Notes: generated from the letters alone by a model not told the origin. Counted from the first letter of the stretch, positions 1,156 to 20,000 are shown. The stretch: 20,000 nt of DNA from an uncultured virus (IMG/VR IMGVR_UViG_3300014043_000005) (IMGVR_UViG_3300014043_000005), one strand, 5' to 3'. Made by a program: numbers and translations.

Positions 1156-1192
1156 GAACACAGTTGAAAAACACGGGAAGGAAACCGCTATC

Positions 1193-2167: not shown

Positions 2168-2201
2168 GAATCCCCAGCCTTCAGGCAGGGGAGGAAGTCA
2201 A
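2134..2201 (+). mobile_element. Orphan IS200/IS605 right end / TnpB omegaRNA 3' remnant
   Basis: 61/68 nt identical to 19189-19256; GGAATCCCC..hairpin..GGGGAGGAAGTCAA terminus resembles the end of the tnpB element at 5559. Confidence 0.8.
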
Positions 2202-2484
2202 TAGAACCTATGTCCGGCATGGCGATGTTTGAAAACAGTGAACGTTTTAATGATGCGTTTCCCTGATTATTCTCACTGGATGCTTATGATATGCGACAAG
2301 TGTCAACATGATTCCAATGATGAAACCAATTATGTTCATGTTAATTAAACTTTCTTCCAAAACTTATAATAATAATTATAATCATAGAATATGATTCTTA
2401 ACAGGAATAGTATAATTAATAATGATTATAATGATTTCACGGGATATTCACATTATGGTGATTTTGCAGGAAGGATAAATCATA

Positions 2485-2958
2485 ATGGTTGATTTGATTG
2501 ATTGGAAAACAGCATTGAAAGCGAATCCGGGTGCGTTGGATGGCAAATGGGCGTCATTTGACTCATTCACCGGCCAGCACATGGAAGGCATTGTATTCAC
2601 TGATAACAGGAAGAACCTGCTATTGCAGACAGCGGCGGATGCACCAGCGGATGGCACTGACGATAAACGCCAACCGGGGTTGAACACGAAACCTCATGGC
2701 ATTCCGTTCATGCAGCATCTCGGCGGTACGTTCGTTCCTGATCCCACTGTGTTCACTGCAAGCATCCGTGTCATTGAACCGTTCAGCATGCCTCGCATCC
2801 TGCTATTGGACGGAACTAATCTGAGCGGTGATTTCAAACCTCATGGTGATAATGCGTATGATGTCATCCTGTTGGATGGCAGGAAACTTCTGGTTCCATT
2901 GACGGCAGTGAAATATGTCGTTCAGACGGTATTGGATGAAGGGAATCCTTTCGCATGA
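2485..2958 (+). CDS. Hypothetical protein (157 aa)
   Basis: ORF with GGAAGG RBS; stop overlaps the next start (ATGA). Confidence 0.75.
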   Translation: MVDLIDWKTALKANPGALDGKWASFDSFTGQHMEGIVFTDNRKNLLLQTAADAPADGTDDKRQPGLNTKPHGIPFMQHLGGTFVPDPTVFTASIRVIEPFSMPRILLLDGTNLSGDFKPHGDNAYDVILLDGRKLLVPLTAVKYVVQTVLDEGNPFA

Positions 2959-3530
2959 TTGCATTCATTATCCCGCCATTAATGTTGAAGGAAAACTGGA
3001 CGCCGATTGATGTGTTCGCTGAGGCATTCAAAAACGAATGGTCGTTAACGAATAAACCTGCGTTTTTCATTCTCATTGCCAGCATAGTCTCATTAGCAAC
3101 ATTATATAAACGTGCGAACAGCAAAAAAATCAAGGTGGAATCAAGAAGAACAGCGGCACGCATGCTGAAATGGCTTCTTGTTCCATTGACTATCGCGATT
3201 TTCATCACCGGATGGATTAACCTGACTCATATAGGTAATTTCATACTGGGAATATGCGGTGCGATTGTTCTCGTTTTCATGCTTGGAGCAGTTGCGTCGG
3301 ATTGGGGCAAACCATCGGAACCAGTGAAATATGCGTATCGTGATGGTTATGCCACACGGGAAACTGGACGCATTGTGAACACGTATACAGGGGAAGTCCG
3401 TTACATGAGCGATCTGCATGATGGACGGAAACTTCCATCCGGGTTTGTTATCGCGGATGATTTCACCAAGGTTGATATTGATCCCGGTTTGAAACTGCAT
3501 GATGCGCCATTAAGCAAACGATTCATGTGA
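2955..3530 (+). CDS. Hypothetical membrane protein (191 aa, ~3 TM segments)
   Basis: Hydrophobic stretches (AFFILIASIVSLA, WLLVPLTIAIFITGW, FILGICGAIVLVFMLGAV); translationally coupled to the upstream gene. Confidence 0.75.
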   Translation: MIAFIIPPLMLKENWTPIDVFAEAFKNEWSLTNKPAFFILIASIVSLATLYKRANSKKIKVESRRTAARMLKWLLVPLTIAIFITGWINLTHIGNFILGICGAIVLVFMLGAVASDWGKPSEPVKYAYRDGYATRETGRIVNTYTGEVRYMSDLHDGRKLPSGFVIADDFTKVDIDPGLKLHDAPLSKRFM

Positions 3531-3543
3531 ATAATACTCCTTT

Positions 3544-3600
3544 AACGGGAATGAACACAATGAGAACATGCCGTGTTCATTCCCGTTTTAGTTTTTTTTT
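3544..3600 (+). terminator. Intrinsic terminator
   Basis: Perfect 15-bp stem AACGGGAATGAACAC (3544-3558) / GTGTTCATTCCCGTT (3573-3587) followed by a T run. Confidence 0.8.
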
Positions 3601-3686
3601 CAGATGAACCAGTATGGAATAATTTGAATGATTATGGTTTCCGTGTTGGTTCGCATAATCCGATTATCATAAATGAGCCTCTATCA

Positions 3687-3717
3687 TGCTGTCTCAAAAA
3701 AGAATCGCCGCCGTCAC
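3687..3717. repeat. Outer imperfect inverted repeat (partner 6080-6111)
   Basis: TGCTGTCTCAAAAAAGAATCGCCGCCGTCAC versus the reverse complement of 6080-6111, TGCTGTTTTCAAAATAGAATCGCCTCCGTCAC. Confidence 0.8.
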
Positions 3718-3864
3718 TGGTCGCTCATGTGAATGTCCGTAAGCCTGTAATCATTCCCGTGTCCTGCTGCATGCGTATCCTGCTGCATGCATGTGAACAC
3801 CAGTATCTCTAACCGTTCGAGTCGCGCCGACACATAACCGTGCCCTGATGCTCGCGCCCCCGTA

Positions 3865-3919
3865 TGCTCACCCTGAAACTCACACGGGTACTCCCTGCTT
3901 GCTTTCAGGTGAACCAGGT
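3865..3919. repeat. Left arm of 55-bp perfect inverted repeat
   Basis: Exact reverse complement of 5924-5978. Confidence 0.95.
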
Positions 3920-4116
3920 CAGAATGAGTTTTTGAACAGTATGATTATATAATGATAATCCATGATAATATGATTATATTGCAAACATTAACCTTATGCT
4001 ATTGAAAAATGTTAATCTTTTTTGTTGCAAGCATTGAATACAATCATCATCAGATGCGGTTCCATTATTTAATTATTAGCGCATGTCTTGAACGCATTTG
4101 CAAACATTCAATAACC

Positions 4117-4131
4117 GGTTCACCTGAAAGC
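4117..4131 (+). repeat. Iterated 15-mer GGTTCACCTGAAAGC (also 5612-5626, 5928-5942, inverted 3901-3915)
   Basis: Four exact copies in the non-coding region. Confidence 0.9.
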
Positions 4132-4139
4132 GGACTTAT

Positions 4140-5559
4140 CAAATTATTGTGCTGGAATACCCCTATTTTTAAATATGAGGGATGACAGCGCAATATCTAA
4201 CTAAAAAGTTAAAAAATAACATTTAAAAGTTGCATACTAGTGGGAGAGTGTGATATCATAGTAAGTATGACAACAGCAGGTAATAATATGCAGACTGTCA
4301 GGTATAATTACCGATTGTACCCGACTAAAACTCAAGAGACTGTGTTGAACCGCCTCTTTGGGTGCTGCCGTGTTGTCTATAATGATACTATTGATTTCTT
4401 TAATAATAATTTTAACCCTAATAATCAGAGTAAACTACCAACCGCAGCGAATGCTAGTAAACAAATACTAACAAGTGCTAAGAAAACCGTTAAGAGAGCC
4501 TTTCTGAAGGAAGTCTCCAGTGTCGCACTTCAGCAGGAGTTCCGTAATGCTTGGTTAGCTTGTTTGCATGGTGTAAGTCATACTAGTAATCAGAAACCAG
4601 CAAAGCGTAAGACTAAGAAGCATAATCCAGTGAACTCAGCTAACTTCACTAGTAATGGTTTCAGTATTAACCAGCATGGTGTGTATATATCGAAAATCGG
4701 GGTTATTAAAACCAAGTGGTCACGCCCCATGCCTAGTGAACCAACTAGTTGCACTATTAGTCATGCTAGGAATGGTCGTTGGTATGCTAGTTTTGTTGTT
4801 AAGCGTCCTAAAACACCATTCGCGCAGTGTGATAATAATGCTGGCATTGACATGGGACTCACTGATATGGCTACGATTGTTAATACGAAAGGTGATAGGT
4901 GGAAGATAGCAAACCCGCGTAATTACGCTAAAATACAGGATAAGATTGGTCGTTTACAGCGACACCTTAGTAAGCAGACTAAAGGTTCTAAGAGGTATGA
5001 GCGAACCCGCCATCAGATAGCATTACTCTATTCTAAGGCTCATGATGCCCTTGCTGATTACCAATGGAAGAATGTTCTCAATATCATACGCGAGACCCAA
5101 GCTATTGGTGTTGAGACACTTGACATTAAAAGTATGACTGCTAAGCATGGTAAGAGTGTACGTGATGCTTCTATGCGTTCATTCCTTAATAAACTGGGTT
5201 CTAAGGCTGATGAGCATTGTAGGGTTATTATCCGGCTTAATCAGTGGTTGGTTACGACTAAAGTGTGTGCTCTTTGTAAGCATAAGTTGAAGGTTGGGTT
5301 GCCTGAGTATGCTAGGCATTGGGTGTGCCCGAAGTGTGGGGCTCACCTGGATCGTGATTATAATGCTGCTCTTAATATCCTCGACGCGGCAGGGCTTGCC
5401 GGGTCGTTAAATGCGCGTGGAGGGAGCGTAATATCATTCTTAGCTTCTGCTGAGAATGGCTGCTCTCGTAGAACCGCGTACCACCCTAATTTCTAGTGAT
5501 TAGAGTTCGCTAGTATACGGTTAGGAATCACCCGACTTTAGTCGTGGTGAGGAAGTCAA
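4140..5559 (+). mobile_element. IS200/IS605-family tnpB-only element (IS1341-like)
   Basis: tnpB ORF; left-end hairpin region ~4150-4191; right-end hairpin 5528-5550 ending GGAAGTCAA (5559); composition differs from the flanks; left boundary after TTAT (4136-4139) is inferred. Confidence 0.85.
4267..5496 (+). CDS. tnpB: RNA-guided endonuclease TnpB
   Basis: N-terminal RYNYRLYPT...LFGCCRVVYN; RuvC-I GIDMGL; RuvC-II GVETLD; zinc finger CALC/CPKC; RuvC-III DRDYNAALNI. ATG 4267 lies 7 nt after the promoter TTGCAT(4230)...TGATATCAT(4251-4259), i.e. leaderless. Confidence 0.95.
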   Translation: MTTAGNNMQTVRYNYRLYPTKTQETVLNRLFGCCRVVYNDTIDFFNNNFNPNNQSKLPTAANASKQILTSAKKTVKRAFLKEVSSVALQQEFRNAWLACLHGVSHTSNQKPAKRKTKKHNPVNSANFTSNGFSINQHGVYISKIGVIKTKWSRPMPSEPTSCTISHARNGRWYASFVVKRPKTPFAQCDNNAGIDMGLTDMATIVNTKGDRWKIANPRNYAKIQDKIGRLQRHLSKQTKGSKRYERTRHQIALLYSKAHDALADYQWKNVLNIIRETQAIGVETLDIKSMTAKHGKSVRDASMRSFLNKLGSKADEHCRVIIRLNQWLVTTKVCALCKHKLKVGLPEYARHWVCPKCGAHLDRDYNAALNILDAAGLAGSLNARGGSVISFLASAENGCSRRTAYHPNF

Positions 5560-5579
5560 AATTCATATGGATTAATTTG
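5380..5579 (+). ncRNA. Predicted TnpB omegaRNA (scaffold to 5559, guide from 5560)
   Basis: Known architecture: the omegaRNA overlaps the tnpB 3' end and the right end; 5' boundary is approximate. Confidence 0.6.
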
Positions 5580-5923
5580 AATAACATGTGGCATTATTCA
5601 AATTTCACAGTGGTTCACCTGAAAGCGATACTGCAACAAGCGGATAATTCTGATTGCATTGTTAACATAATCAGTATGATTTTTTCATTGAATTCATGAA
5701 TACGGGAAACCGTGAAAATCGATGCCGTTCACAGAGCGCAGAATAATAGGCTCTGTGGACGGCTGTTTTAACCGGAATCACGGAAAACCCTGTTTTCGAT
5801 GCGTGTCTCATGAAACATATAGAATCGCCGTCAGAATCGAAATAAGAGTTTTTTATGATGTGAAAAATCACCATGAATACTCTGAACAACGCATCATCCT
5901 GAACTCTTGAAAATGGCTTTTTA

Positions 5924-5978
5924 ACCTGGTTCACCTGAAAGCAAGCAGGGAGTACCCGTGTGAGTTTCAGGGTGAGCA
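5924..5978. repeat. Right arm of 55-bp perfect inverted repeat
   Basis: ACCTGGTTCACCTGAAAGCAAGCAGGGAGTACCCGTGTGAGTTTCAGGGTGAGCA = reverse complement of 3865-3919. Confidence 0.95.
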
Positions 5979-6242
5979 ATCAGCGCGACCAGTATGGCTG
6001 GCTCCGACTGGTACAGTGGACAGTATTCATATACGGGCTGGCATCATGCAGGCAACAACGTGATGGATACGGGCAACATGTGACGGAGGCGATTCTATTT
6101 TGAAAACAGCACTTACGATAGATGTGATTTGATGTGGTTTCAGCCCTGCTCTGCTCAGTTTGCATCTATGACGAAAACCGCGTAGTCGTTGCCCTTGCGG
6201 TAGGAACTGCGCATCGTACACGTCGCATTCGGAGCGAATGAC

Positions 6243-6497
6243 ATGACAGCGGAACTATTGGATGGTTTGCTGTCATGTGATTTCGGTGAATGCATGAAAC
6301 CTTGTTCACAGGGCGACATTGGTTATGCGAAGTCACTCATGGGTGTTGCGCGGAATGAATTGAGCATGGATGATTTCCGATTGTTCATTTGGATGCGAAC
6401 AATGAATGCATGTGAGCGGTACGCGCCGGTTTTGCGCGTAATAATATGCTTGCAATGTTTGATGATGCGATGCACAATGAGATTGCTTATATTATGA
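6243..6497 (+). CDS. Hypothetical protein, possibly decayed
   Basis: 84-aa ORF with GGAG upstream; C-terminal part looks out of frame. Confidence 0.35.
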   Translation: MTAELLDGLLSCDFGECMKPCSQGDIGYAKSLMGVARNELSMDDFRLFIWMRTMNACERYAPVLRVIICLQCLMMRCTMRLLIL

Positions 6498-6542
6498 GTC
6501 ATGGTTTGAATGCTTATCGGTTCTCATGCTATCATTGGCTGC

Positions 6543-7421
6543 ATGATATCAAATGATGAAATGCAGGAAATTCGGGATTACATTGACAGTTTGATGCATG
6601 AGCATGGCGGAAACGGGTATTATGATAAGATGTATGCCGTCAGTGAGATTCCCGCGTTTGAAACCATTGTTAATTACAGTAATGCGAACATTGGACTCAT
6701 TCATGAGTATGTGAATGATTATGTGGAAACCGGTAGGGTGAGGTCATTCCTTGCAGGTTCGGACATTTATAATTCAGTGTCATTTTTCAATGAGTTGAAT
6801 ATTTTCATTTATCATCATCATGATTATGATAATCTGGTTCCTAAGAATATTCGTGATGCAATGCGCACATGGACAATGTTATGTGTTCCACATGGTATTA
6901 TGAATGCTAATGGGTTCAAATTGACATCATCTTTTTCATCTATGAGTCAATACATGCATTATCTCATGCGTAAAAATGATATGAATAACAGTGAAATCAG
7001 TCATGCTCTTGCTGACCCGTCATATTATCCGCGTGTCATTCGTGATGAAACCGATGCATTCATTGGGGATGTCATTAACGGGAACCGTCGTAATACTGAA
7101 ACCTTATTGAAATTCATAATGAAATATAATGAACCTGTATCATCATATGATTTGGATACATTGGTTTCAAATGAAACCATTATGAGCATATCATATGACG
7201 ATATGCTTCCCGGTATTCTCATGACTGATAATTGGAATGAACGCCTTGCATTCATGAAAGCATTCAATATTATGAAAACATATGCTGATGTCATAAGTGA
7301 TTTCAATGGGAACATGACATTGAATGATGCGATGCCAGCATTAATAGAAAATATGAATGGAATGCCTTTTGAATACACGTTGGAAATAATGAAAACCGGT
7401 ATGCCTGATTGCGTATCATAA
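6543..7421 (+). CDS. Hypothetical protein (~292 aa), leaderless
   Basis: Long ORF; TTGAAT(6506)...TGCTATCAT(6527-6535) lies 7 nt before ATG 6543. Confidence 0.75.
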   Translation: MISNDEMQEIRDYIDSLMHEHGGNGYYDKMYAVSEIPAFETIVNYSNANIGLIHEYVNDYVETGRVRSFLAGSDIYNSVSFFNELNIFIYHHHDYDNLVPKNIRDAMRTWTMLCVPHGIMNANGFKLTSSFSSMSQYMHYLMRKNDMNNSEISHALADPSYYPRVIRDETDAFIGDVINGNRRNTETLLKFIMKYNEPVSSYDLDTLVSNETIMSISYDDMLPGILMTDNWNERLAFMKAFNIMKTYADVISDFNGNMTLNDAMPALIENMNGMPFEYTLEIMKTGMPDCVS

Positions 7422-7429
7422 TTGATGGC

Positions 7430-7940
7430 ATGCATTCAAATGTTGGCATTATGAATATGGAATTGAAAACAGCTGGTGAACGCGGGATGCCAATGGAATT
7501 GAACGCAATATCGGTGGATGCGCATGATTATGATTTCAAGTATTTGCATGGATTCGTTGATGACTATGAGCATATCTCATACTGGACGCATTGAACCGAG
7601 GAGATTATTGATGAGTCCCATCATCGCGGAATATCATCAGTATGTCATGAATCATGATTAGCGTGAGAATATTGATGACGAATCCGAATTATTTGAAAAC
7701 ATGGAATGGCATTCTGGATGAAAGCAAAATGATTAAATTGGATTATTATAATCATGATTCGATGCGTGCGTTATTGAATCCTATGAACAATCATTGAAAA
7801 CAATGGAATCATAATGCATCAATTCATTGCAGGTACCATTGAATGCTTTATTATTGCGTGATTGCAAACAGGTGATTAATGATTACTCAATGGAATATTG
7901 CACGGGAACAATCGAAAATTATTACTCATTCATGATATTT
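7430..7940 (+). pseudogene. Probable decayed gene
   Basis: Coding-like composition but broken into short frames by TGA/TAA stops and frameshifts. Confidence 0.35.
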
Positions 7941-8121
7941 ATATGCTATCATTGTAGACAAATGAAATCATTCTGAAAGGAACATGATATGACTGTTAAT
8001 ATTATTCTCATGTTCCATGCGTCCCATCATTGAACATGAAACTATTCCATGTGAACAATGATGATAGCATGGAAACAACATGATAACAAGCATTTATTAT
8101 ATTTTTTGATGGGAGTTTAAC

Positions 8122-9264
8122 ATGATTGATTTAACTGATTTGGATACTGGTTTGCGTTCGATGGAAACCAGACTTGATGTGAACGAATTGATTGCACGTA
8201 ATGATGCTATTCGTTCAATGATGGATTCATCGGATTATTGGGTACGGCGTGGTGATGATGCCAGCATGATAGCAAGTGAACTCACACGGAACCAGAAATT
8301 ATTGGATGATTACACTGGTTTGAAAAACGACATCGCTGGTTTGCATGATTACACTGAACTCATGAATGATGATGAACTCACGGATGATGACCGCAATTGT
8401 CTCATTGCGGAACATGATAGGCTCATGAACGCATTGAATGCAATGCGATTGGACATCGCAGTGAGCGGCATTGATTATGCGGACAGGGACGCGATTATCA
8501 CGATTCATGCTGGTTCAGGCGGAACGGAATCGGAAAACTGGTGCTGGATGCTATCACGAATGTATATGCGTTATGTTGAAACCAATGATTACAATTCGGA
8601 CATTGATGATGTCGCTTATGGTGATGGCGGCGCAGGTTATGATTTATTGCGTTCAATCAGCATCCGGATAAGCAAACAGAAGAATCACCATTATGATGGC
8701 ATGTATTCATTTCCATTTGCGTTATTTTCACGGGAAGCGGGACGGCAGAAACTCATCAGAATCTCACCTTTTGACAAGAATCATCGCAGGCAAACCAGCG
8801 TGTGCTCAGTTGATGTGATTCCTGTTTTAGATGAACACATTACAAGCATTAAAGACATTATAATCGATCCGAAAGATTTGAAAACCGATGTGTTCTGCGC
8901 ATCCGGGCCGGGTGGACAATGCGTGAACACTACGTATTCAGCTGTCCGTCTGACGCATATTCCAACTGGTATTGTAGTCAGTCAACAGGATGAACGTGAT
9001 CAGCATCGTAATCGTGAGAAAGCAATGCTTGTATTGAAAACGCGGTTATTATTGTTGAAACAACAGGAACAGAAGGAGAAGCTGAAATCACTGGGCAATG
9101 ATGTTGGTACTACAATGGGTGGAACAATCCGGAATTATGTCCTGTATCCTTATGAACAGGTTAAGGATACACGGACTGGATGCGTTGCAACCAATGTGGA
9201 CATCATGCTGGAAACAGGTGAAGGATTAGATGATTTCCTGCGCACGGAACTATTCGTTTTATAA
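8122..9264 (+). CDS. prfB: Peptide chain release factor 2 homologue
   Basis: AGSGGTES..W..ML.RMY, SPF specificity motif (RISPFDKNHRRQTS), GGQ (SGPGGQCVNTTYSAVRLTHIPTG), C-terminal IRNYVLYPYEQVKDTRTG. Confidence 0.92.
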   Translation: MIDLTDLDTGLRSMETRLDVNELIARNDAIRSMMDSSDYWVRRGDDASMIASELTRNQKLLDDYTGLKNDIAGLHDYTELMNDDELTDDDRNCLIAEHDRLMNALNAMRLDIAVSGIDYADRDAIITIHAGSGGTESENWCWMLSRMYMRYVETNDYNSDIDDVAYGDGGAGYDLLRSISIRISKQKNHHYDGMYSFPFALFSREAGRQKLIRISPFDKNHRRQTSVCSVDVIPVLDEHITSIKDIIIDPKDLKTDVFCASGPGGQCVNTTYSAVRLTHIPTGIVVSQQDERDQHRNREKAMLVLKTRLLLLKQQEQKEKLKSLGNDVGTTMGGTIRNYVLYPYEQVKDTRTGCVATNVDIMLETGEGLDDFLRTELFVL

Positions 9265-9321
9265 TCAATGCATGTGATATTTCCACATTGCGTTCAATGA
9301 GAACAGGAAAGCAGGTGGATT

Positions 9322-9693
9322 ATGTCGAATGATGAGATTTTCAAGATGCATGGAATACTGGTACCATTTATTTTCATTGCGTTTCATCTTGTCGGTTCAC
9401 TGACTGCGGTTCATCCATTATGGCTTGCGATAATAATCGGATTCATTGACATCATTGGAGGCAGTGTGTTAATGTCATTCATCATCACCGTTACATGGTT
9501 GAATGGACATTTGGATAAATTCAGGAATGGTATTATAATCAGTGTCATCATCATGCTTGCAGGTGCATTCACTTTCATGCCGCCGAGCTGGATGGGAGTT
9601 TTGACAACCGTGCTGCTGGCAGGTGAATACGCGCTCATATGGGCGTGTGCGACGAATAATCCAGTGGATGAACAGCCAACTGAGGAATGGTGA
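9322..9693 (+). CDS. Small 4-TM membrane protein
   Basis: Four hydrophobic segments; AGGTGG RBS. Confidence 0.75.
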   Translation: MSNDEIFKMHGILVPFIFIAFHLVGSLTAVHPLWLAIIIGFIDIIGGSVLMSFIITVTWLNGHLDKFRNGIIISVIIMLAGAFTFMPPSWMGVLTTVLLAGEYALIWACATNNPVDEQPTEEW

Positions 9694-9852
9694 ACTAGTG
9701 ATGCCGTTAAAAGTGAACATATTGTGATCATTTGATGGCGGTGCCATTCATGATTGGCATTTCATATGAGTGTTTTGCTGTAATCATAATGTTGACATGA
9801 GCGCATAATCAATGAACATACCATTGGCTGTTGCATGTGATATAATGCTTAT

Positions 9853-10332
9853 ATGATAACCGGTATTGATTACAATGATTCCAATGCAATCATTCATGAT
9901 GATACGCATGGCGATGTAACCGTGCGATTGGATAACATTGGGAACATGCGCATGGATGGTTTCAATATTAACGGGAAACCATTGGATTGGATGCATCGCG
10001 CGATCATTTGTCGTGAAATCATCGATTACGCGAACAAACATGACATGGATGTTGCCCTCATTGATTCAAGTGGAATCATACGATACGCAAGCATTGAAAA
10101 CATGCTGACACATGTGAAACGCAGGCTGATGATTGACAAACAGGATAGAATGCATGAGCAACTACGAATGGGAGCCGGTTATAGCATGGATGGAGCGAGC
10201 ATAATCAATCAACTCATTGACAAGCTGCGTTCACATGATGACATCAGCATGGAACTCATGGCGCTGGGTTATGATGAGGTTCCATCATTCATTATCAAAT
10301 GTATTAATAGTATTCATGGAAAAACCAATTGA
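9853..10332 (+). CDS. Hypothetical protein (159 aa), leaderless
   Basis: TGATATAAT (9838-9846) lies 6 nt before the ATG. Confidence 0.7.
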   Translation: MITGIDYNDSNAIIHDDTHGDVTVRLDNIGNMRMDGFNINGKPLDWMHRAIICREIIDYANKHDMDVALIDSSGIIRYASIENMLTHVKRRLMIDKQDRMHEQLRMGAGYSMDGASIINQLIDKLRSHDDISMELMALGYDEVPSFIIKCINSIHGKTN

Positions 10333-10341
10333 ATTTTTCCT

Positions 10342-10349
10342 GATAGATT
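10342..10349 (+). promoter_or_regulatory. Shared upstream motif GATAGATT (also 12239, 13390, 14985); candidate element-specific (late) promoter
   Basis: Identical 8-mer 34-51 nt upstream of four leader-bearing genes. Confidence 0.6.
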
Positions 10350-10383
10350 CAATTGGATGCATTGTGAACATGGAAGGAATAAC

Positions 10384-11481
10384 ATGGCTGGGAAACGGAC
10401 GCCTGCTGGAACATGGTATGAGGGCAAGGACGGGAAACCTCATCCCTGCATGACAGAGAACGGCAAACCATGTTCCAAGCATGCTAAGAACCAGCATATT
10501 GGTAATTCCTATGAGGAAGCCGAACAAGCCATTGAAGCGAAATATGACGCGGATATGAATTCAATGGGGACAGGGCTCACATCCGAGCAAACAGCAATGC
10601 TAACCAGCATTCTGAATGATGCTAAGCATGATTCCAATGACCGCATTGAAAGCATTCTCGGTGAACCGGTTGAACATATTGGTTCTATTCCAGTGTATGA
10701 GGATAAGCATGCTTCGCCGGATGGCGTTGCAGCGTTATATTACCCGCATGTCAAGGATGGTACTGTCCATGTGGATTCATTGCGTTCAATCGCGGACGAT
10801 GCAAGTATGAATGATGATGAATCACATGGTGTGAGGCAGTATACTGGTTATGGCGCGTATGATATGAATCGTGTTCTGCGAGGTGATGAAATGACGGATC
10901 ATTCACCGGATGAACAAGGTGGAGTCGTGCATGATTTGAACTCATTGACTGATCTGCTGGATAGGACTGAATCACCGGATGACATGATAGTGTATCGACA
11001 GGAACGCTTCATGGTTGGTGATTCCCCTGAATATAAAGCAATAGTGAATGCATGCAATGAGAACAATGATGACATGTATGATAAACATGATTTCACCAGC
11101 ACGACAATTAATGGCGGGAACCGTCGTGGAATGGAGGAATCGACTGGTTGTGTGGATTATGTGATAATGATTCCAAAAGGCACGCACGGAATGCTGGTGG
11201 ATTCACAATCATATCATGCTGATGAACAGGAATTCCTTGTCCAACAAGGACAATCATATAAGGTTAAGGCGATTGTGAACAGGGGTTCTGGTTATAGGTT
11301 GAATCAGCGGAAACCTATTGTCATAATGGAAGCAGTGCCAGCAGAGTCACATCCAGTAAGAATCAATGAGGATGATTATGGTTTTGATGGTTCCATGATG
11401 ATGACGGAGGATGATGTTGACGCCATGATGAGTGAAGACATAATAAGTGATAGTTTTTTCGAAGATCTATTGGATTATTAA
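10384..11481 (+). CDS. ADP-ribosyltransferase ART1 (VIP2-like) with N-terminal CCH leader and acidic tail
   Basis: YDMNRVLR, DMIVYR, FTSTT, IPKGTHG, EQEFL (R-S-ExE); start ATG 10384 after GGAAGG. Confidence 0.85.
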   Translation: MAGKRTPAGTWYEGKDGKPHPCMTENGKPCSKHAKNQHIGNSYEEAEQAIEAKYDADMNSMGTGLTSEQTAMLTSILNDAKHDSNDRIESILGEPVEHIGSIPVYEDKHASPDGVAALYYPHVKDGTVHVDSLRSIADDASMNDDESHGVRQYTGYGAYDMNRVLRGDEMTDHSPDEQGGVVHDLNSLTDLLDRTESPDDMIVYRQERFMVGDSPEYKAIVNACNENNDDMYDKHDFTSTTINGGNRRGMEESTGCVDYVIMIPKGTHGMLVDSQSYHADEQEFLVQQGQSYKVKAIVNRGSGYRLNQRKPIVIMEAVPAESHPVRINEDDYGFDGSMMMTEDDVDAMMSEDIISDSFFEDLLDY

Positions 11482-11639
11482 CTGATAATAATTTTTATAA
11501 TATAATGCTCGCATGATGAATATCGGCTTCTTTGCTTGCCTTGACATCCGGCATTTTCAATCGGAATTCATCAGCTGTGTAATCATAATATTTTTTCATG
11601 ATTACAATAATATAATACGATGATTATGCTGCTAACATT

Positions 11640-12096
11640 TTTAATTGGATGACGGAACCATATTCGATTCCATCATCCAATTATGTTACTATACAATCAC
11701 ATATTTCATCATTCCGTGATATGCATTTCAAATGCCGCGCAACGCGAATCATCCATTTCAATCAATGTTCTCATCATGCCATCATCGAGTCCATAACGTC
11801 CACCGCATGGAATGAAATATTGCATGCCGGGCAAACCAATCATGTCAGTTTTACCATGATAAATGAAGTTCCTTATTTCATAACCATCATTGATGAGCAT
11901 GCCCCTTACGGTGATTACATATCATAATCATCCAATGTGAATATTTTATCATATTTTCTTATTGAACGCATCACGATTCACGGAACTATGATAATCATCA
12001 CCATGTGCAATGATTACTGGCTCCTTATACCCGCTCTGCATCGTCAGCCATTTCACTGTATCCAATGTCATTATAAACATTCTCAATGGTATTCAT
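11640..12096 (-). pseudogene. Frameshifted remnant gene
   Basis: TATACT -10 followed by ATG (MNTIENVYNDIG...); coding-like fragments in shifting frames, including the 63-aa ORF 11709-11900. Confidence 0.4.
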
Positions 12097-12296
12097 GATT
12101 ACAGTATACTACATGATATGAATCCATACAAGAAAACAGTCATAATGATGATAATATTGAATGCATGAATAAGAATGATATGCGTGAACCGAACCTGACG
12201 AGTTTCATCAGTGATTTCGGAAATTCTGATGTTTTCACGATAGATTCCATGTGAACATGAATGCAAATATTACCATAATCACGGAGGTGAATCATC

Positions 12297-13328
12297 ATGC
12301 GAAAGCCAGCTGGAACATGGTATGAAGGCAAGGACGGGAAACCTCATCCCTGCATAACCGAGAATGGCAAACCATGTTCCAAGCATGCTGGCAGTGAACA
12401 CATAGGAACCACTTATGAGGAAGCCGAACAGTATATCCAAAGGAAATATTCCGATACCGTTTTCATTGGAATGTCATCATTGAATCCAATGTTTTCAGAT
12501 AGAACGAATAATAATGATGAATCATTCAAAATGACTGACATGATGATTCGGCGCGAAAAACTGAACAATGATGGGAACATGCCGATACGCATGAAAATAC
12601 CAGTTGATTATCCAACCGAACGCATCTCACAGATAATGTTTCCATCCACGCCGGATGCACGGAGCATGGAAAATGAACTCATGGATTCAGCGAATGCATC
12701 ATGGAAATCAATGACGGAACATGAGAAGGATTCCATTCGCGCTTATTGTTCCGATGCGTATGAGGCGATGAATGAGTATCAGCGTGGGGATGATGACATT
12801 CGTGCGGACATTGACAATGACGAATTCGTGAAAGCGGATTTGAAAAACTATGGTTTCAGGACTGTTAAAGGCGCGATAAGCACAATGAGCCGCGCTTTAA
12901 GGAAAACAAGCACAGGCAGGGACATGATAGTGTATCGTTCCAGGTTCACGGAAGCATCCAGTGGCGGACGTGACATGGAAGAGAGAACATTCTATGATGC
13001 TGGCATGAATGCATTGGAAACAGGCGAACCGGCAATCATCCGGAAAGCCGGGTTCTCATCAACGACAACGGATTTGAAATCATTGTTCTCAGGATTGGGG
13101 GGAGCACCATCGGACACGCCTCATAATGTGAAATACGTGATTAAAGTGCCTGCCGAGACTCATGGAATGTATGTCGGTGGGCTGTCACCGAATCATGAGG
13201 AGAAGGAATTCCTCATGAATAAAGGCATGAAATACCGGATCGCGGGAATTTTCGAACGCGGAACATATGATGATTATGAGAATGACTGGGATGCCGCGCC
13301 GATAATCGCATTGGAAATCATGAAATGA
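12297..13328 (+). CDS. ADP-ribosyltransferase ART2 with CCH leader
   Basis: YEAMNEYQR, DMIVYR, FSSTT, VPAETHG, EKEFL, PIIALE; GGAGG RBS. Confidence 0.85.
   Translation: MRKPAGTWYEGKDGKPHPCITENGKPCSKHAGSEHIGTTYEEAEQYIQRKYSDTVFIGMSSLNPMFSDRTNNNDESFKMTDMMIRREKLNNDGNMPIRMKIPVDYPTERISQIMFPSTPDARSMENELMDSANASWKSMTEHEKDSIRAYCSDAYEAMNEYQRGDDDIRADIDNDEFVKADLKNYGFRTVKGAISTMSRALRKTSTGRDMIVYRSRFTEASSGGRDMEERTFYDAGMNALETGEPAIIRKAGFSSTTTDLKSLFSGLGGAPSDTPHNVKYVIKVPAETHGMYVGGLSPNHEEKEFLMNKGMKYRIAGIFERGTYDDYENDWDAAPIIALEIMK
12305..12389 (+). repeat. Leader-encoding direct repeat (80/85 identical to 10401-10485)
   Basis: Direct comparison; differences are mostly synonymous. Confidence 0.9.
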
Positions 13329-13448
13329 GCACATGAGAACATGATGCGTTCACATGCTATTATTATTCAATATAAGTATTGAAAACACGGATAGATTGAC
13401 ATCAGGAACATAATTTGTTAACATGAATGCATGGAAGGAAAACATATC

Positions 13449-14912
13449 ATGGCGACTAAAACATATGGTTATGACAGGAACGGGAATGTAAGTGAATGCA
13501 CCGCGCAGGAACGGAATCGCGGTAAGGGACGCTGTAATCATTACGGTCATTTCAATACTGATAACAAACAGGAACTCATTGAGAAGACAGAAGCGATTCA
13601 AGCCGAACTGAACAATGATGTGAACGCCGGAATGATTGCGCACAATGTATCCAAAACCGGTTCGGCGGAGCGGGAATTCGAACGAGTGCATGCAGTTGAA
13701 ATCAGGAATGCGGAACAGGAATATGAGAAAGCGAAAACCGCTTATGATGCCGTCCGCATGAAACCTGATGCGATTGAAACCGAATACAGGACGCTGGTGG
13801 ATGCGAATAATAGGAAATACGCGGAATTGGATGCACGCATTGACAACATGAGTTATCCATCCGGTGATAAGGAACTGGATGAACGGTTTGAACGAGCATT
13901 CAATGATTCGCTCACTGATAAATCCGATTTTGATGTTGATGATCTTAAATCAGGAGGAAGAATCATCCTGCATAAAGGCGATATCAATGAATTCATTCCT
14001 GAAATCAGTGAAATCCCGGCAGATGAACGTGTGTATGCTGATGATGAGGGATTGGATTATTATGATGCATCGGATGATGAACCGGAAGGATGGTATAGGA
14101 ACGGTGAATATTACGCTGATTATGATGATCCGTCAATCATTGATGTGAATGCAATTCAGGATGCTGTTGTCAATGAGGATTCATTGGATATAACCGATCA
14201 TGCGATTTCATCCACTAAATACACTATGCATCAGGAACTTAAACAGGAACATGCGGAAGCGGATAAGGAAGCGTTGAATACCGCAAAATCACATCATCCT
14301 ATGACCGAGAATGAGGAAAAACAGGCGCTTGACGCCAGAGTTAGATTCATGAACGCATCCATGAGGTTGAAAAAGCTGAATGATGCGAAAAACATCGCGG
14401 GAATCGCAGGTTTTGATGTCATCAGGAAAATCAATGAATCCAATGATGGTGTGAAAACATATGAGAACAGACTGAAAACGGAATTATCATATGGCGGTCA
14501 TGTTGATTATGACTATGACTATGACTATGACGCTGGCGGAACCAGCCGGAAAATGCCGGGCGATTATTACACGTCCAGTATCACGAATGCGGATCCTGAT
14601 AATTGGTATACAGTGGATTCAGTTGAATACAATGATAGTGGGCTGAAAAAGAAAGCGTTGATTGACAGGGAAACCGATCCATATGTCCTGTCGAAAGCGG
14701 AGAAACAAAATGGTTTTCAGGAAGGATGGATGCGTGTCATTGATGATGATAAACATTCACCTGAAAGCCGTTACAGGATGATGATAACGCAAGCATATGA
14801 CAGCAATGGTTTCAATGATTACCAATTGAAGCAAATCCGTAAGTCAAAACTATATAAAACAGGAGGAATGCCTGATTTTGATAGGATAATCAGTATTATC
14901 CGCAGGAAATAG
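13449..14912 (+). CDS. CCH-leader protein without ART domain (coiled-coil and acidic, ~487 aa)
   Basis: N-terminus YGYDRNGNVSEC..........CNHYGH; heptad-like helices; Asp/Tyr-rich core; GGAAGG RBS. Confidence 0.8.
   Translation: MATKTYGYDRNGNVSECTAQERNRGKGRCNHYGHFNTDNKQELIEKTEAIQAELNNDVNAGMIAHNVSKTGSAEREFERVHAVEIRNAEQEYEKAKTAYDAVRMKPDAIETEYRTLVDANNRKYAELDARIDNMSYPSGDKELDERFERAFNDSLTDKSDFDVDDLKSGGRIILHKGDINEFIPEISEIPADERVYADDEGLDYYDASDDEPEGWYRNGEYYADYDDPSIIDVNAIQDAVVNEDSLDITDHAISSTKYTMHQELKQEHAEADKEALNTAKSHHPMTENEEKQALDARVRFMNASMRLKKLNDAKNIAGIAGFDVIRKINESNDGVKTYENRLKTELSYGGHVDYDYDYDYDAGGTSRKMPGDYYTSSITNADPDNWYTVDSVEYNDSGLKKKALIDRETDPYVLSKAEKQNGFQEGWMRVIDDDKHSPESRYRMMITQAYDSNGFNDYQLKQIRKSKLYKTGGMPDFDRIISIIRRK
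14505..14531 (+). repeat. Hexanucleotide tandem repeat (GAYTAT)4.5 encoding DYDYDYDYD
   Basis: gattat gactat gactat gactat gac. Confidence 0.8.
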
Positions 14913-14929
14913 AATAATTCAATTAATTT

Positions 14930-14981
14930 AATGCGTGCATTGTAAATATGAATTGCATAATGCACGCATTTGTATTATTTT
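14930..14981 (+). terminator. Probable terminator hairpin
   Basis: 12-bp stem AATGCGTGCATT / AATGCACGCATT with a T-rich tail. Confidence 0.6.
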
Positions 14982-15031
14982 CCCGATAGATTACCATAAG
15001 AGAAGAATGACATTATAGAAGGAATAGCATC

Positions 15032-16516
15032 ATGGTAGGCATGGTTGATAATGCTCCGAAACAATTGAAAAATAAGAAACCGGATGAATCATGGCCGCAT
15101 CATCAGGATAAGCATGGTAACTGGGTTCCCTGCGCTTCCAATCCATGTAAAATGCATGGCGGAACGGAAATCATGGCTAAGAATCCGGAGGAGGCATTTG
15201 AGAAAGCGAATTCAGTATCATGGGGTTCATTCGGAATGAGCATGAATCAGAAGAACGATAACATTGATGAAACTGATAAAAATTCAGAAACTGATAATTC
15301 AAATGCTAATAATCACAAAGTGAAAGAGCATGCGTTGGATGGTGTTTTGAAAGCTGGAATGACATCATTGAATGCAAATGATAACAATGATGACATGAAT
15401 GACAAGCAGAAAGCGGCATGGGATAAACTGCAATCCGCAATGGATGATAATTCGCATGATGAGCATAAACCGGTGAAGAAACATGTGAAATTGACTAAAA
15501 AGAAAACTGTAAAACCAGTTGAAACCAGCGATGACAATATGAGCAAAACCGGGACAATCACCGGATCACATGAATCGAAACAGACTGAATCATCAACTGG
15601 AACCACTTCCAGTTCAAATGCGTCCAATGCTGGCATTATAACATCAAACAGGCATCTTATGAAACAACGCGCCGTGATTGAACAACGGTTGAAAGATGCT
15701 GGCATTGATATCATTGAGCGTCCTGCGCCATCACAGGAAGTAATTGATGAAATGCGTAATAATGGCGAGTATATTCGTGATAATCCGCTTGTTTTCAATG
15801 TGGACAGTAAAGTGAACACGCAGGAACTTGCGCACGCCATTTTCAAGGGAGCGGATTTCGGTGATGAACATTATAAGGAACTTATTCAGCGTTCTAATGA
15901 GGCGTGGGATTCAATGACATCAGATGAACAGGACGCAATTTATCAGTATACCGGTTCCGCATATAGTTCGATGAATAAGGCATTATATAAGAAAAACTAT
16001 AAAGCGGAGAAATCATTAAAAAAGATCGCTGACATGAGTTCGGGACTGGCGAAAACAGAGAATGTATGCCAACATGATACTGTGTTGTATCGTCGCCGTT
16101 TCCTGAAAGAACAGGACGGCGAGTATACACGGAGCAGGGAGGAGACCGCCGCATTTCAAGCCCTTGCGCGTGTTACCGGTAAGAAAACAGCGAAACCTAC
16201 TTTCACTCGTGCCAATTATATGAGTACAGCTAATCGTGGTTTCAATAATAGCTATCATGATCAAGTTAGATACATTATAAGCATTCCGAAAGGCACGCAT
16301 GGTATTTCAGTGGAGGAACATAGCATTCATAGCAGTGAGGATGAGTTCATCATTGACAAAGGCTATGATTATGAGGTTGTCGGCGTGTTCCAAACAAGCG
16401 AAATACGTAAACACAGTAACGGCATTACCAATTGGGAAACAGGATGCAGCCCGATAATCGCCTTGCGTGTAATTCCGAAAAAGAATAAATCCGTCAAACC
16501 GGGAATGACAGCATGA
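15032..16516 (+). CDS. ADP-ribosyltransferase ART3 with CCH leader and low-complexity linker
   Basis: YSSMNKAL, DTVLYR, YMSTA, IPKGTHG, EDEFI, PIIALR. Confidence 0.85.
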   Translation: MVGMVDNAPKQLKNKKPDESWPHHQDKHGNWVPCASNPCKMHGGTEIMAKNPEEAFEKANSVSWGSFGMSMNQKNDNIDETDKNSETDNSNANNHKVKEHALDGVLKAGMTSLNANDNNDDMNDKQKAAWDKLQSAMDDNSHDEHKPVKKHVKLTKKKTVKPVETSDDNMSKTGTITGSHESKQTESSTGTTSSSNASNAGIITSNRHLMKQRAVIEQRLKDAGIDIIERPAPSQEVIDEMRNNGEYIRDNPLVFNVDSKVNTQELAHAIFKGADFGDEHYKELIQRSNEAWDSMTSDEQDAIYQYTGSAYSSMNKALYKKNYKAEKSLKKIADMSSGLAKTENVCQHDTVLYRRRFLKEQDGEYTRSREETAAFQALARVTGKKTAKPTFTRANYMSTANRGFNNSYHDQVRYIISIPKGTHGISVEEHSIHSSEDEFIIDKGYDYEVVGVFQTSEIRKHSNGITNWETGCSPIIALRVIPKKNKSVKPGMTA

Positions 16517-17569
16517 ACGCATTGAAAACAACCAGCGAATGGCCGCATCATCAGGATAAGCATGGCAACTGTGTTCCCTGCGCTTCCAATCCATGTAAAA
16601 TGCATGGCGGAACGGAAATCATGGCTAAGAATCCGGAGGAAGCGTTTGAGAAGGCAAACAGCGCATTCACTGAATTTATTAAAAAGCTGAATAATGCTGG
16701 CATTAAACTGGCGGATCGCACGCAGAATGACGAGGACATTATTAAGGAACTGCGTGATAACAATGAATACATTGATGATAATCCACGGTGTTTCCATGTG
16801 AATGGTGATGATGTGAGCGCTTATGATATCGCGCATGCATTATTCCCCGATGCTGATTATGGTGATAATGATGACATCATGGAAGCATTGAATGAACGTT
16901 CGGAAGCGATATGGCATGCGATGTCATACGATGAAATGATTGCATTGAATGATTATTGCGATCGTGGTTATCAGCAAGGTTAACGGCACTCTCATTAAAG
17001 GACGGAATGTGCTTGAAGATGATGATGGACAGATATTGACATCGGAACAGGTTCATGATGAGATTAATAACATTTCATCCGCATTATCAAGAACCGGGGA
17101 TGTGATAACTCATGAAACCATTGTGTACAGAAGACAGGGAAATGCATGGAAATATGGCATAGGCGATGAAACAATGGCAATCATGAATTCCCTCATATCC
17201 AATGATGGCGTTCCGGTTGTCCGCCGTCCGAATTATGTCAGCACATCAATGCAGGCATCATTGGATACGGCTGATTTCAACTCATCCGCTCATCATGAAA
17301 CACAATATGTGATTAGCGTTCCAGCTGGCGTCCGTGCTTTATCAGTCGCGAATCATAGTGAATTCAGTGAGAATGAACTTATCATTGATAAAGGCTATAA
17401 ATTCGAGGTTATAGGCGTTTTTCAAACATCTCAATTGGGACATCAGGATGCAGTCATTGGAATCAATGAGGATGGTAAGAAACAGCATGATGGAATATTG
17501 AATTGGAAGCGTGATGGCAATCCAATAATCGCGTTGCGCGTCATCCCTTATTTCAATGTGGATAAATGA
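16513..17569 (+). pseudogene. ADP-ribosyltransferase ART4, split by a +1 frameshift near 16978
   Basis: Removing one G in CAA-G-GTT joins ORFs 16513-16983 and 16949-17569 as GYQQVNGTL (cf. GYKQVNADL in ART5); ETIVYR, YVSTS, ENELI present. Confidence 0.8.
16539..16652 (+). repeat. Leader-encoding direct repeat (110/114 identical to 15091-15204)
   Basis: Direct comparison. Confidence 0.9.
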
Positions 17570-17633
17570 ACGCATATAATATGGAAACATGATGCATTAT
17601 CAACAATAATAACATGATGTTGGAAGGATTTGA

Positions 17634-18776
17634 ATGATGGCGGATTATGGTTATCCGGGAACATGGTATATTGCAGCTGATGGAAGAAAACGCAGATGCA
17701 GGACAATCGGTGGTTCACCTTGTCATCAACATGCCAATGGCGGTCATATCACTGATGATGCTGGCAATGTCATCATTGCTTCCAATGAAACTGAATTGGA
17801 AGCGAAACTGCATGCCGGTTTGAAAACCGGCATGACTGGCGATGCTCATATGAAAACAAATGATGACATGATGGAAACGCAAGCATCTGATAAGGTTAAT
17901 AAACCGGCTGTGAAACCGCATGAACCGGCGATTCCAATGCCGGGAATGATGATGAACAGCAGTTTGAAGAAAAACATCATGATGAAACAAGCACGAGAAC
18001 GGAAACGTGAGCAAATCAAATTGGAACGCGCCAAACCAGAAACAAGCATTGATGACAGCATTAAAATACGTAATGGACTTGCGGATGAACTTAAAAAACA
18101 TGGTTCATGGATTTATGATTCCAATGTGTTCAAGGGATACACTGATAAAACAACCAGCCAGCTTGCTCATGAACTATATCCTGATGCGGTTGAGGGTGAT
18201 GTGGCGGAAAACCCATTGACACGCGACGCAAGGAACGTTTATCATAAACTGGATGGCAGAACACGATTCGCCGTCAAGGATTACACGGAAGTCGGTTATA
18301 AGCAAGTGAATGCGGATTTACGTGATGGGAACAAAATGGATACACGGAGCCATGAACTCATGGTAGGAATGGACAGGGCGATTCATGCGAATGCGCCATT
18401 GGAACATGACACTGTATTATATAGGACAATTGAATTGAACGATATGACAACCACTAACCGTGGAATTGAGGAGAAACGCGCGTATGACGCCATTGCATCC
18501 GGTGATGGCATTGTGGATAATCCGGCGTATATCAGCACATCATTCAAGGGGAGCCTGTTCGCGGCGGGTGAACATGAAAACACTGAAATCATCATTCTTG
18601 CGAAAGCGGGAACTCGTGGAATCGCAATAACTGACAGTCAATATGATGAACATGAGTATGTGATTGATCGCGGAACTCGAATGCGCGTGAAAGCGATTTA
18701 TGAAACAGGTGATTACAGGGATGCGGATAATTGGCGTTTGAAACATCCGGTGATAATCATGGAAACCATCCCATAA
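17634..18776 (+). CDS. ADP-ribosyltransferase ART5 with CCH leader
   Basis: YKQVNADLR, DTVLYR, YISTS, AGTRG, EHEYV, PVIIME; leader GTWYIAADGRKRRC.......CHQH. Confidence 0.85.
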   Translation: MMADYGYPGTWYIAADGRKRRCRTIGGSPCHQHANGGHITDDAGNVIIASNETELEAKLHAGLKTGMTGDAHMKTNDDMMETQASDKVNKPAVKPHEPAIPMPGMMMNSSLKKNIMMKQARERKREQIKLERAKPETSIDDSIKIRNGLADELKKHGSWIYDSNVFKGYTDKTTSQLAHELYPDAVEGDVAENPLTRDARNVYHKLDGRTRFAVKDYTEVGYKQVNADLRDGNKMDTRSHELMVGMDRAIHANAPLEHDTVLYRTIELNDMTTTNRGIEEKRAYDAIASGDGIVDNPAYISTSFKGSLFAAGEHENTEIIILAKAGTRGIAITDSQYDEHEYVIDRGTRMRVKAIYETGDYRDADNWRLKHPVIIMETIP

Positions 18777-18928
18777 ATGGCATCATATGCTATCATTGTG
18801 AGCAGGAAAAACGAAATTGAAAGGTGAATCTGATGCCGTTATTGAATGAGGAACTAATGAGCGCATGATAACAGCATTGAAATCATATCGCAATCATCAT
18901 AACATGATATGATAATACGACACGCTAT

Positions 18929-19256
18929 CAATCATGTGAGAGGGCGGCGGTGAATCACGCACACGCATAACCGACTCTCTATGTAGTGCTTTCAATCGAG
19001 AATTATATGATATTTTTAAATCAAATTTTGCATTATCCAAAAGAATATGATATTATAGTAAGCATGAGTTCATACAGGCGTTATAATTATCGGCTGCTTT
19101 GAATATTCTTGACTCCGTAGAGGTGATGTAAGACGAAGGCTGGCGCAAGCCAGTCGCAACGTTAACGCCAATGAAGCGGGAACCCACCGAACCGCAATCC
19201 TCCATTAAGGCGACCGGCGTAGGAATCCCACGCCTTCAGGCGTGGGAGGAAGTCAA
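18929..19256 (+). mobile_element. Miniature, internally deleted tnpB element retaining promoter and omegaRNA region
   Basis: Promoter TTGCAT-17-TATTAT; ATG 19064 MSSYRRYNYRL fused out of frame to AALNILD (19093-19113); right-end hairpin ending GGAAGTCAA at 19256; left boundary inferred. Confidence 0.8.
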
Positions 19257-19360
19257 TATGATTGACATTGTTTCATTAATATGATAGTATAATTATGTAA
19301 ATAATATTTTATTCATGTTAACATTGTTATCATGAACCGTTCTGGAAAGGATGATTTGAA

Positions 19361-19564
19361 ATGGCTGATAAGAATCTTGTGTATGGTGAATGCATTGTAT
19401 GCGGGCGTGAGGACACGATGAATCTGACTGACTCGCAGAAAACCGTGTATGATGCGCTGCGTGAAAGCGATGCCGATCTGAATGAATACAAGACCGCTTT
19501 CCCTGAATTCAATGCCGCGCAATGCGCATTCCTATGGGCCGGACTCTGCCCGCAGCATGCTTGA
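19361..19564 (+). CDS. Small putative Zn-binding protein (67 aa)
   Basis: CIVC and CPQH motifs; TGTTATCAT promoter (19325-19333) and AAAGGA RBS. Confidence 0.7.
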   Translation: MADKNLVYGECIVCGREDTMNLTDSQKTVYDALRESDADLNEYKTAFPEFNAAQCAFLWAGLCPQHA

Positions 19565-19650
19565 TTGAAAACATCATGCATACAGTTCACCACATGATGC
19601 TTTCAATGTCCGCGCGATATAATTGCGTTGATGATTCTCTGGAAGGAAAC

Positions 19651-19886
19651 ATGAGCATTATGAGTGAAATCATTGATGTCAGTGTTGCCAGTGTCAATTC
19701 AGGTGTCGCCGGAAGCGGTTTGCCGATTCTCGTGGGAGTTGACGGCAGTGATGCCAGTTATCGCTCGGTTCCATGAGCCAATCCCTCATTCAGCATTCCA
19801 ACATTCCGGTGTATATCGTTCCTCGTAAATATGTTGATTACCAGAGTGTTGTGGGAATTCCCCTGCTTATGAAGCATGAGGATTAA
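19651..19886 (+). pseudogene. Universal stress protein gene collapsed by internal deletion
   Basis: N-terminal ILVGVDGSDASYR joined out of frame (~19763) to C-terminal LGSMSQSLIQHSNIPVYIVPRKY, the first and last Usp signature motifs. Confidence 0.75.
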
Positions 19887-19987
19887 AAGCACAACCTGCT
19901 TACAATTAATAACATAATTAATGTAATCAACCAGCATGATTGATAATGTGATATCATTGAGAACAACACCGGGAAGGAGGAAACGTG

Positions 19988-20000
19988 ATGACACCAGAGG
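19988..20000 (+). CDS. Start of a gene truncated by the window edge
   Basis: TGATATCAT (19949-19957), GGAAGGAGG RBS, ATG. Confidence 0.45.

Follow-up and report, generated by a model that had tools for sequence, protein, structure and literature searches.

A stretch of 20,000 nucleotides from an uncultured virus (IMG/VR IMGVR_UViG_3300014043_000005), referred to here as the window, was examined for an N-terminal Cys-Cys-His leader that six consecutive genes had been predicted to share. The window is 42% GC and carries these six genes head-to-tail on the + strand between 10.4 and 18.8 kb. Five of them are ADP-ribosyltransferase (ART) genes in tandem, one of which is frameshifted, and the sixth is a non-ART gene (Table 1). 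The gaps between consecutive genes measure 815, 120, 119, -4 (an overlap) and 64 nt, and the sole open reading frame (ORF) within them, in the first gap at 11649-11927, encodes 92 amino acids without a family match. For ART1 an alternative, longer ORF begins at 10357; the start at 10384 is likelier because the relatives of this protein begin MTGKR.

Table 1. Genes of the six-gene array and their leaders, with positions in the window
Feature	Position	Strand	Basis
ART1 (leader + linker + C3/VIP2-type ADP-ribosyltransferase)	10384..11481	+	PF03496 E 2.9e-18, residues 150-309
Leader of ART1	10390..10563	+	HMM envelope; external-only model E 1.7e-12
ART2	12297..13328	+	PF03496 E 1e-20
Leader of ART2	12297..12479	+	HMM envelope; external-only model E 9.4e-14
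Non-ART cargo gene	13449..14912 (ORF from 13431)	+	homologous to P0034 and P0046
Divergent leader of non-ART gene (C-x10-C-x-H-x2-H)	13449..13643	+	alignment with P0046 leader
ART3	15032..16516	+	PF03496 E 2.9e-21, residues 276-454
Leader of ART3 (WPHHQD type)	15068..15247	+	HMM envelope; external-only model E 4.4e-25
ART4, two frames	16513..17569 (ORFs 16513-16983 + 16949-17569)	+	frameshift near 16976-16983
Leader of ART4	16513..16668	+	HMM envelope; external-only model E 2.3e-23
ART5	17634..18776	+	PF03496 E 7.5e-12
Leader of ART5 (YGYPGTWY type, insertion after C-x2-H)	17637..17843	+	HMM; external-only model E 2.5e-11

The ART domains scored 66.4, 74.4, 76.1, 52.1 (second piece of ART4) and 45.4 bits with PF03496 (ADPrib_exo_Tox), for which the gathering cut-off is 23.4 bits. 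The catalytic Arg, the Ser-Thr-Ser region and the E-x-E of this class are present in the window ARTs, and the catalytic set R214, S255, T256, E302 and E304 (ART2 numbering) is invariant in a 25-sequence alignment (A6). A Foldseek search with the AlphaFold2 (AF2) model of ART2 returned Certhrax (E 4e-11), C3bot1 (E 2e-9) and VIP2 (E 5e-9), with a probability of 1.00. The non-ART gene had no Pfam, PHROG or NCBIfam match at the thresholds used.

All six genes carry the leader module

The leader follows the pattern W-x-(Y/H)-x-D-x-x-G-x3-4-C-x4-11-C-x2-H, which is followed by a capped acidic helix and then by G-[M/L], making about 60 amino acids. Four peptide strings that the original prediction had quoted were all found in the translations where they had been placed. 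A six-frame scan of the window with a hidden Markov model (HMM) of the leader detected the module in exactly the six array ORFs and nowhere else, the next best match having an E of 1.1. Because this first HMM included the window copies, the model was rebuilt from 48 external sequences only, and the external-only model recovered the five ART leaders, with E values of 3e-11 to 4e-25.

The leader of the non-ART gene was not recovered by the external-only model (-0.5 bits). By hhalign just 14 columns were aligned (P 0.039), and in pairwise Smith-Waterman comparisons 3 to 31 of 300 shuffles reached an equal score. The cargo of this gene clusters with that of P0046, which begins with a canonical WPYHED leader; residues 6-486 of the non-ART protein align with P0046 at E 8e-16 and 25% identity. 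The two leaders lie in register at Y, D, NGN, both Cys, His and AG[M/L], and the non-ART copy has a 7-residue insertion between the cysteines relative to P0046. This homology of the whole protein to one with a canonical leader indicates that six of six genes carry the module, the sixth as a divergent copy. The leader predicted for the six genes is thus confirmed, for five by the external HMM and for the sixth by the P0046 alignment.

The leader is a predicted small Cys/His domain

The AF2 model of the ART3 leader, made with 54 sequences, had a mean predicted local distance difference test (pLDDT) score of 75.4, with core blocks at 80-89, and contained strands E9-13, E19-21 and E35-37 and a 15-residue helix (H40-54). 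The same order of elements was repeated in the full-length ART2 model (strands 4-10, 16-22 and 35-37, helix 40-53), where pLDDT fell below 50 over residues 52-77 and then rose to a confident ART domain. This recurrence, followed by low-confidence residues, shows the leader in the models as a small, independently folding domain of about 55-65 amino acids on a low-complexity, flexible linker to a variable enzyme. The domain is laid out as a beta-hairpin on W-(P)-Y/H-H-x-D-x-x-G-x-M/W-V, a Cys...N-P-Cys-x-x-His knuckle, a short strand, an acidic helix capped by S-x-E-E-A, and a closing G-[M/L]. The acidic helix behind the Cys/His module had also been predicted and is present.

In a 54-sequence leader alignment the G and both C are invariant, the P before the second Cys is found in 53 of the 54 sequences, the His of C-x-x-H in 52, the W in 48 and an upstream H in 46. 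The helix cap S-x-E-[E/D]-A is near-invariant, and the G-[M/L] pair lies about 12 residues past the helix, with its G in 46 of 51 sequences. Judging from this pattern of residues, we infer that a single zinc ion would be bound by both invariant Cys and the near-invariant His together with one more His, whose position is upstream in most members but downstream in ART1, ART2, ART5 and the non-ART gene. The G-[M/L] pair probably marks where the domain ends and may be a processing site.

Recruitment domains are typically folded units on flexible linkers, as the leader is in the models, and it could work inside the producing or infected cell as a partner-binding or regulatory module, either as a tether to a common platform (a host machine or a scaffold of the element) or as a prodomain cleaved at G-[M/L], which is conserved and sits at the domain boundary. 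We regard such an intracellular role as the main rival to the docking role proposed below, though as rather unlikely, since AF2 shows no packing of the leader on the ART, with a pLDDT of <50 for the intervening residues, and since the acidic-rich leaders of the WPYHED type argue against nucleic-acid binding.

The domain has no significant match among the families of the libraries searched and appears previously undescribed in that respect. Four leaders had no Pfam match at E<=1; among 54 leaders searched against PHROGs the best family was matched by 6, with a best E of 0.0016; and NCBIfam gave no significant match. The best hit of a profile search of the PDB was an NPC2 loop (E 0.013), Foldseek returned nothing at E<=1e-3, the best VIA-align Z was 2.2, and the ESM Atlas gave no usable match. 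Among the papers listed by literature searches on host elements and delivery precedents, none dealt with such a module, the motif itself not being searchable as text. The first hairpin (aromatic-x-Y/H-x-D-x-x-G-x-M/V) resembles a single YG (cell-wall/glucan-binding) or YD (Rhs) repeat, and the leader profile aligns to glucansucrase repeats at E 0.45, no stretch passing the threshold alone. Unlike these repeats, the leader has a single hairpin, and behind it come a Cys/His knuckle and a helix; the likeness probably reflects a local hairpin motif common to both rather than homology.

The leader is conserved at the protein level

The leaders of ART1 and ART2 are 80% identical and their bodies 32%, and for ART3 and ART4 the values are 89% and 44%. 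At the DNA level the ART3 leader is 95% identical to that of ART4, and the ART1 leader 81% identical to that of ART2. Tandem copies so alike could arise without any specific function of the leader, as paralogues that were produced by duplication and whose 5' ends were kept alike by gene conversion. Codon comparisons make this very improbable. Within the window the ratios of synonymous-only to non-synonymous leader codons are 6:1 (for the ART4 leader) and 9:8, and between loci that otherwise share nothing they are 13:5, 9:7 and 8:5. Even in between-locus comparisons in which 21-23 of 72 nucleotides differ, the differences are mostly synonymous, which places the constraint on the protein, beyond what gene conversion alone would give. 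The loci carrying the module have GC contents of 33%, 37% and 42% and nothing else in common, and the module stands before many unrelated cargos (see below); both facts also count against a leader without function. A role of the leader region at the DNA or RNA level was ruled out by the mostly synonymous differences. The comparisons show a leader that is under protein-level purifying selection while its cargo diversifies or is swapped.

The leader precedes unrelated cargos

An exhaustive hmmsearch of 1.84 billion representatives (clusters at 50% identity) placed the leader family in 81 clusters at E<=1e-3 and in 12 at E<=1e-10. The module begins at most 30 residues from the annotated N-terminus in 115 of the 120 proteins collected, and the 112 cargos of at least 60 amino acids behind it form 37 BLASTP clusters. 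By Pfam, 72 new representatives included 10 with PF03496, two with PolyA_pol and one each with Zeta_toxin, NT5C and GmrSD_C/HNH_4, as well as two further weak matches; the other 55 were without any match. Among 57 cargos, PHROGs added HNH endonuclease (2) and tRNA nucleotidyltransferase (2), left 48 without a match, and tied the zeta cargo domain to a phage "minor head protein" family. Each leader protein with a significant match has one cargo domain, overlapping related families being counted once. No LXG, WXG, Rhs, PAAR or MuF domain, nor any other delivery domain in Pfam, was found in the window proteins or the 72 representatives. The module is thus strictly N-terminal and attached to unrelated cargo, non-ART enzymes among them, and no known delivery domain accompanies it, all as originally proposed. 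The possibility that the HMM would hit ARTs only, or match a known domain, was checked with a negative outcome.

These results bear on an intracellular role of the leader in both directions. Some cargos are repair or housekeeping-like enzymes (tRNA nucleotidyltransferase, NT5C phosphatase), which would suit a role inside the cell, and the absence of immunity genes between the ARTs would be tolerable if the enzymes are held in check or target-specific. On the other hand, the strict N-terminal position is not needed for a recruitment domain.

Leader genes probably lie on large mobile elements

The relatives of the leader come from metagenome assemblies, with contigs of up to 553,788 bp, and single large contigs of 553,788 bp (with P0009 and P0021), 375,007 bp (P0037 and P0112) and 178,014 bp (P0117 and P0120) carry several leader proteins. 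DNA near-identical to the window was found in bovine-gut metagenome runs, in 20 rows from 13 studies, each covering part of the stretch; the DNA of the window may itself come from one of these rows. At one external locus (L004), two leader genes lie beside genes for a TcpC conjugation protein, SSB, a RadA-like protein, DnaB and a PD-(D/E)XK nuclease, and at another (L002) one leader gene lies beside genes for a SpaH-type pilin and a class C sortase. These contexts point to large mobile elements of Gram-positive hosts, and the TcpC homologue hints at conjugation. A separate observation at L002 is a set of four or five tandem paralogues at 700-6688 with a common N-terminal "...TFDTAFTKAYNLI..." region; they have no Pfam or NCBIfam match and make up another expanded gene family, this one in a related element.

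The elements that carry the module have been missed by the virus, plasmid and species-genome collections searched. Loci were sought with two narrower leader alignments (A4 and A5), the wide alignment (A3) being too diverse. Among reference phages there was no DNA match for window positions 8000-20000, and tblastn found nothing for ART2 or P0053 and only the ART domain of P0075. PLSDB plasmids gave nothing for ART3, and the leader protein at L004:5459-6661 was matched there by its nuclease half only. In IMG/VR nothing was found for the non-ART protein or for WPYHED leaders, and one FAGTFH-type match (L005) was spurious on reading. The GTDB species genomes searched held no genuine leader match; one hit (L001) was short and spurious, at 12.4 bits.

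Two known groups of elements were considered and set aside, each by GC content, which is a weak exclusion only: Inocle elements, for which PMC12340149 gives 24-32%, and Lak megaphages, for which PMC8346664 gives 26-31%, vs 42% in the window. The window also holds a divergent release factor 2 (RF2) gene at 8122-9264, which scored 291 bits with TIGR00020 vs a cut-off of 370; among the tblastn matches listed in phage or plasmid records, its best identities are 31-38%. One DNA contig of run X3 joins 7626 to 9245 and is without this gene. An RF2 gene is also known from huge phages (PMC8346664). The RF2 gene prompted a trial of TAG-to-Gln recoding, which hardly altered the ORF map, and the standard code was therefore kept.

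A proposed role in docking effectors to DNA delivery

We infer that the leader serves for docking or addressing rather than for catalysis. The reading that we favour, tentatively and with somewhat less than even confidence, is that the leader is zinc-binding and attaches the enzymes to the DNA-delivery machinery of the element, which would bring them into the next cell together with the DNA. The leader would bind a component of the element's own machinery, and the docking partner would be the interior of the procapsid or else a conjugative type IV coupling apparatus of the Gram-positive type. Effectors so tethered would travel with the DNA into the next cell and act there before the genes of the element are expressed. 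The cargos delivered would be C3-like ARTs, tRNA nucleotidyltransferase, a zeta-type kinase, a phosphatase and nucleases, a repertoire that fits the effectors delivered with DNA by phages and conjugative elements that PMC5512222 describes.

The logic of such delivery is shared with T4 Alt, MuF fusions and polyvalent proteins (PMC5512222). The T4 Alt ADP-ribosyltransferase is packaged (same source), and the likeness would lie in an ART that accompanies the DNA into the new cell and is active there immediately. The window ARTs match the "Alt-like" families of PHROGs weakly (E 1e-7 to 1e-3), and unlike Alt their ART cargo is of the C3/VIP2/Certhrax type. The polyvalent proteins, as presented by Iyer et al. 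2017 (PMC5512222), resemble the leader proteins in their effectors (ART, zeta kinase, nucleotidyltransferase and nucleases) and in that their enzymes are predicted to pass through a capsid or conjugation channel along with the invading DNA. They differ in having, according to the same text, 2-15 domains per polypeptide, usually including a zincin peptidase, whereas here each effector has a separate gene with its own small N-terminal domain, and no peptidase was seen.

Several points weigh against delivery with DNA. The external context comprises three loci only, and neither the window nor the genes adjoining the leader genes showed a capsid, portal, terminase, relaxase or coupling protein. Some cargos, such as the tRNA nucleotidyltransferase and the phosphatase, could be of use without any delivery. 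In known conjugative substrates the signals are internal or C-terminal, and T4 capsid targeting relies on a short peptide, which is cut off by the prohead protease at L/I-x-E; neither precedent closely resembles a folded, putatively zinc-binding domain at the N-terminus. The likening to the T4 signal that the original prediction had offered is loose: the leader is N-terminal as well, but it is a folded domain of about 60 amino acids without a conserved L/I-x-E, and its acidic motif S-x-E-[E/D]-A reads as a helix cap. Finally, P0109 and L004:5459-6661 have, between the leader and a DUF1524/HNH nuclease, a lipoprotein-type signal made up of a basic stretch, then a hydrophobic stretch and then L-S-A-C. 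A signal in this place suggests export across the producer's own membrane, and the leader would be left in the cytoplasm. This topology is odd, and any model of the leader must account for these two proteins.

The two signal- or lipobox-bearing members would fit a leader that is the recognition domain of an unrecognised Gram-positive export route, belonging to a new class of polymorphic toxins with interbacterial or extracellular action. Pilin, sortase and TcpC genes as neighbours would fit as well, as would a conserved N-terminus before variable, toxin-like C-terminal domains (ART, HNH, zeta). The single N-terminal module before ARTs, HNH nucleases and zeta kinases is indeed reminiscent of polymorphic toxins and of the MuF, SPP1 gp7, LXG and Rhs/PAAR systems, and, as in polymorphic toxins, the N-terminus is more conserved than the C-terminus. 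To this extent the analogy drawn by the original prediction stands, but no immunity-type gene follows each toxin gene in the window, the leader is far smaller and Cys/His-based, and the delivery domains of these systems are not present. The leader is also missing from the GTDB species genomes searched, a collection in which polymorphic toxins encoded on chromosomes should appear. In addition, one cargo only passed a simple hydrophobicity screen for a transmembrane stretch; this screen is insensitive, since it missed P0109. Together these results make an export route of this kind improbable.

A further step, possible but more doubtful than docking to DNA delivery as such, would make the module the address domain of an unrecognised delivery route in a class of giant (200-550 kb) uncultivated mobile elements of Gram-positive bacteria of the animal gut. 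If the module is an address domain, the HMM would read out the full set of effectors co-delivered by each element, and 55 of the 72 representatives among those effectors would belong to no known family. The 60-residue HMM would then be a handle on the delivered effectors of poorly known, very large mobile elements, dozens of unannotated enzyme families among them, and the leader a portable tag for loading foreign proteins. Even as a recruitment domain only, it would be a new, widespread small Cys/His fold. The clean modularity of the leader eases testing by metal content, partner pull-down and G-[M/L] processing. The principle of a common N-terminal module before variable effectors is known already; this module, its fold and its host elements have no counterpart in the libraries searched.

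The ART4 frameshift and other features of the window

The second piece of ART4 is 92% identical to P0030, an intact relative of 376 amino acids. The same truncation is seen in P0007 (11 member sequences, 3 contigs), and in-frame alleles are found in P0030 and in one low-depth contig of run X3. Since the frameshift is common to other assemblies, and in-frame alleles occur too, ART4 looks like a real polymorphic pseudogene rather than the product of a sequencing error. In other assemblies two ART4 relatives, P0006 and P0095, are fused to C-terminal fragments of TnpB. The window itself contains an IS200/IS605-type TnpB element at 4140-5559 (TnpB ORF 4240-5496), and a contig of run X3, which joins 4139 to 5560, is without it; the fusions of P0006 and P0095 therefore indicate that the same kind of insertion sequence disrupts leader genes.

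All large genes of the window from 1.1 kb onward lie on the + strand. Between 10000 and 19000 the coding strand has an excess of purines, with a GC skew of +0.05 to +0.20 and an AT skew of up to +0.23. A 346-amino-acid protein with an N-terminal run of CxxC pairs, encoded at 1127-2167, had no family match. The window contains no tRNAs and no Rfam family at gathering score, and promoter and terminator scans of it were uninformative (7 terminators vs 7.4 expected).

Contigs from RNA libraries cover parts of ART2 and of the non-ART gene and the start of ART3, such coverage being no proof of transcription. Downstream of the array, a GC-rich stretch of about 140 nt at 19115-19256 lies in an AT-rich gap. 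In the bin that includes it (18677-19343) the RNA-library depth is 117, vs 0-11 in the other bins up to 18.7 kb, and the DNA depth is 203. The loose ends on both sides of the stretch indicate many contexts, its fold z-score is -2.0, and no Rfam match was better than E 0.2; a repeated small RNA and an insertion-sequence end are both candidates for it. In RNA-library contigs of two runs, X17 and X18, short pieces of the window (11440-11472 and 12230) are flanked by the same palindrome-containing sequence of 27-28 nt. These flanks look like clustered regularly interspaced short palindromic repeats (CRISPR) around spacers that match the element, and they could name its host.

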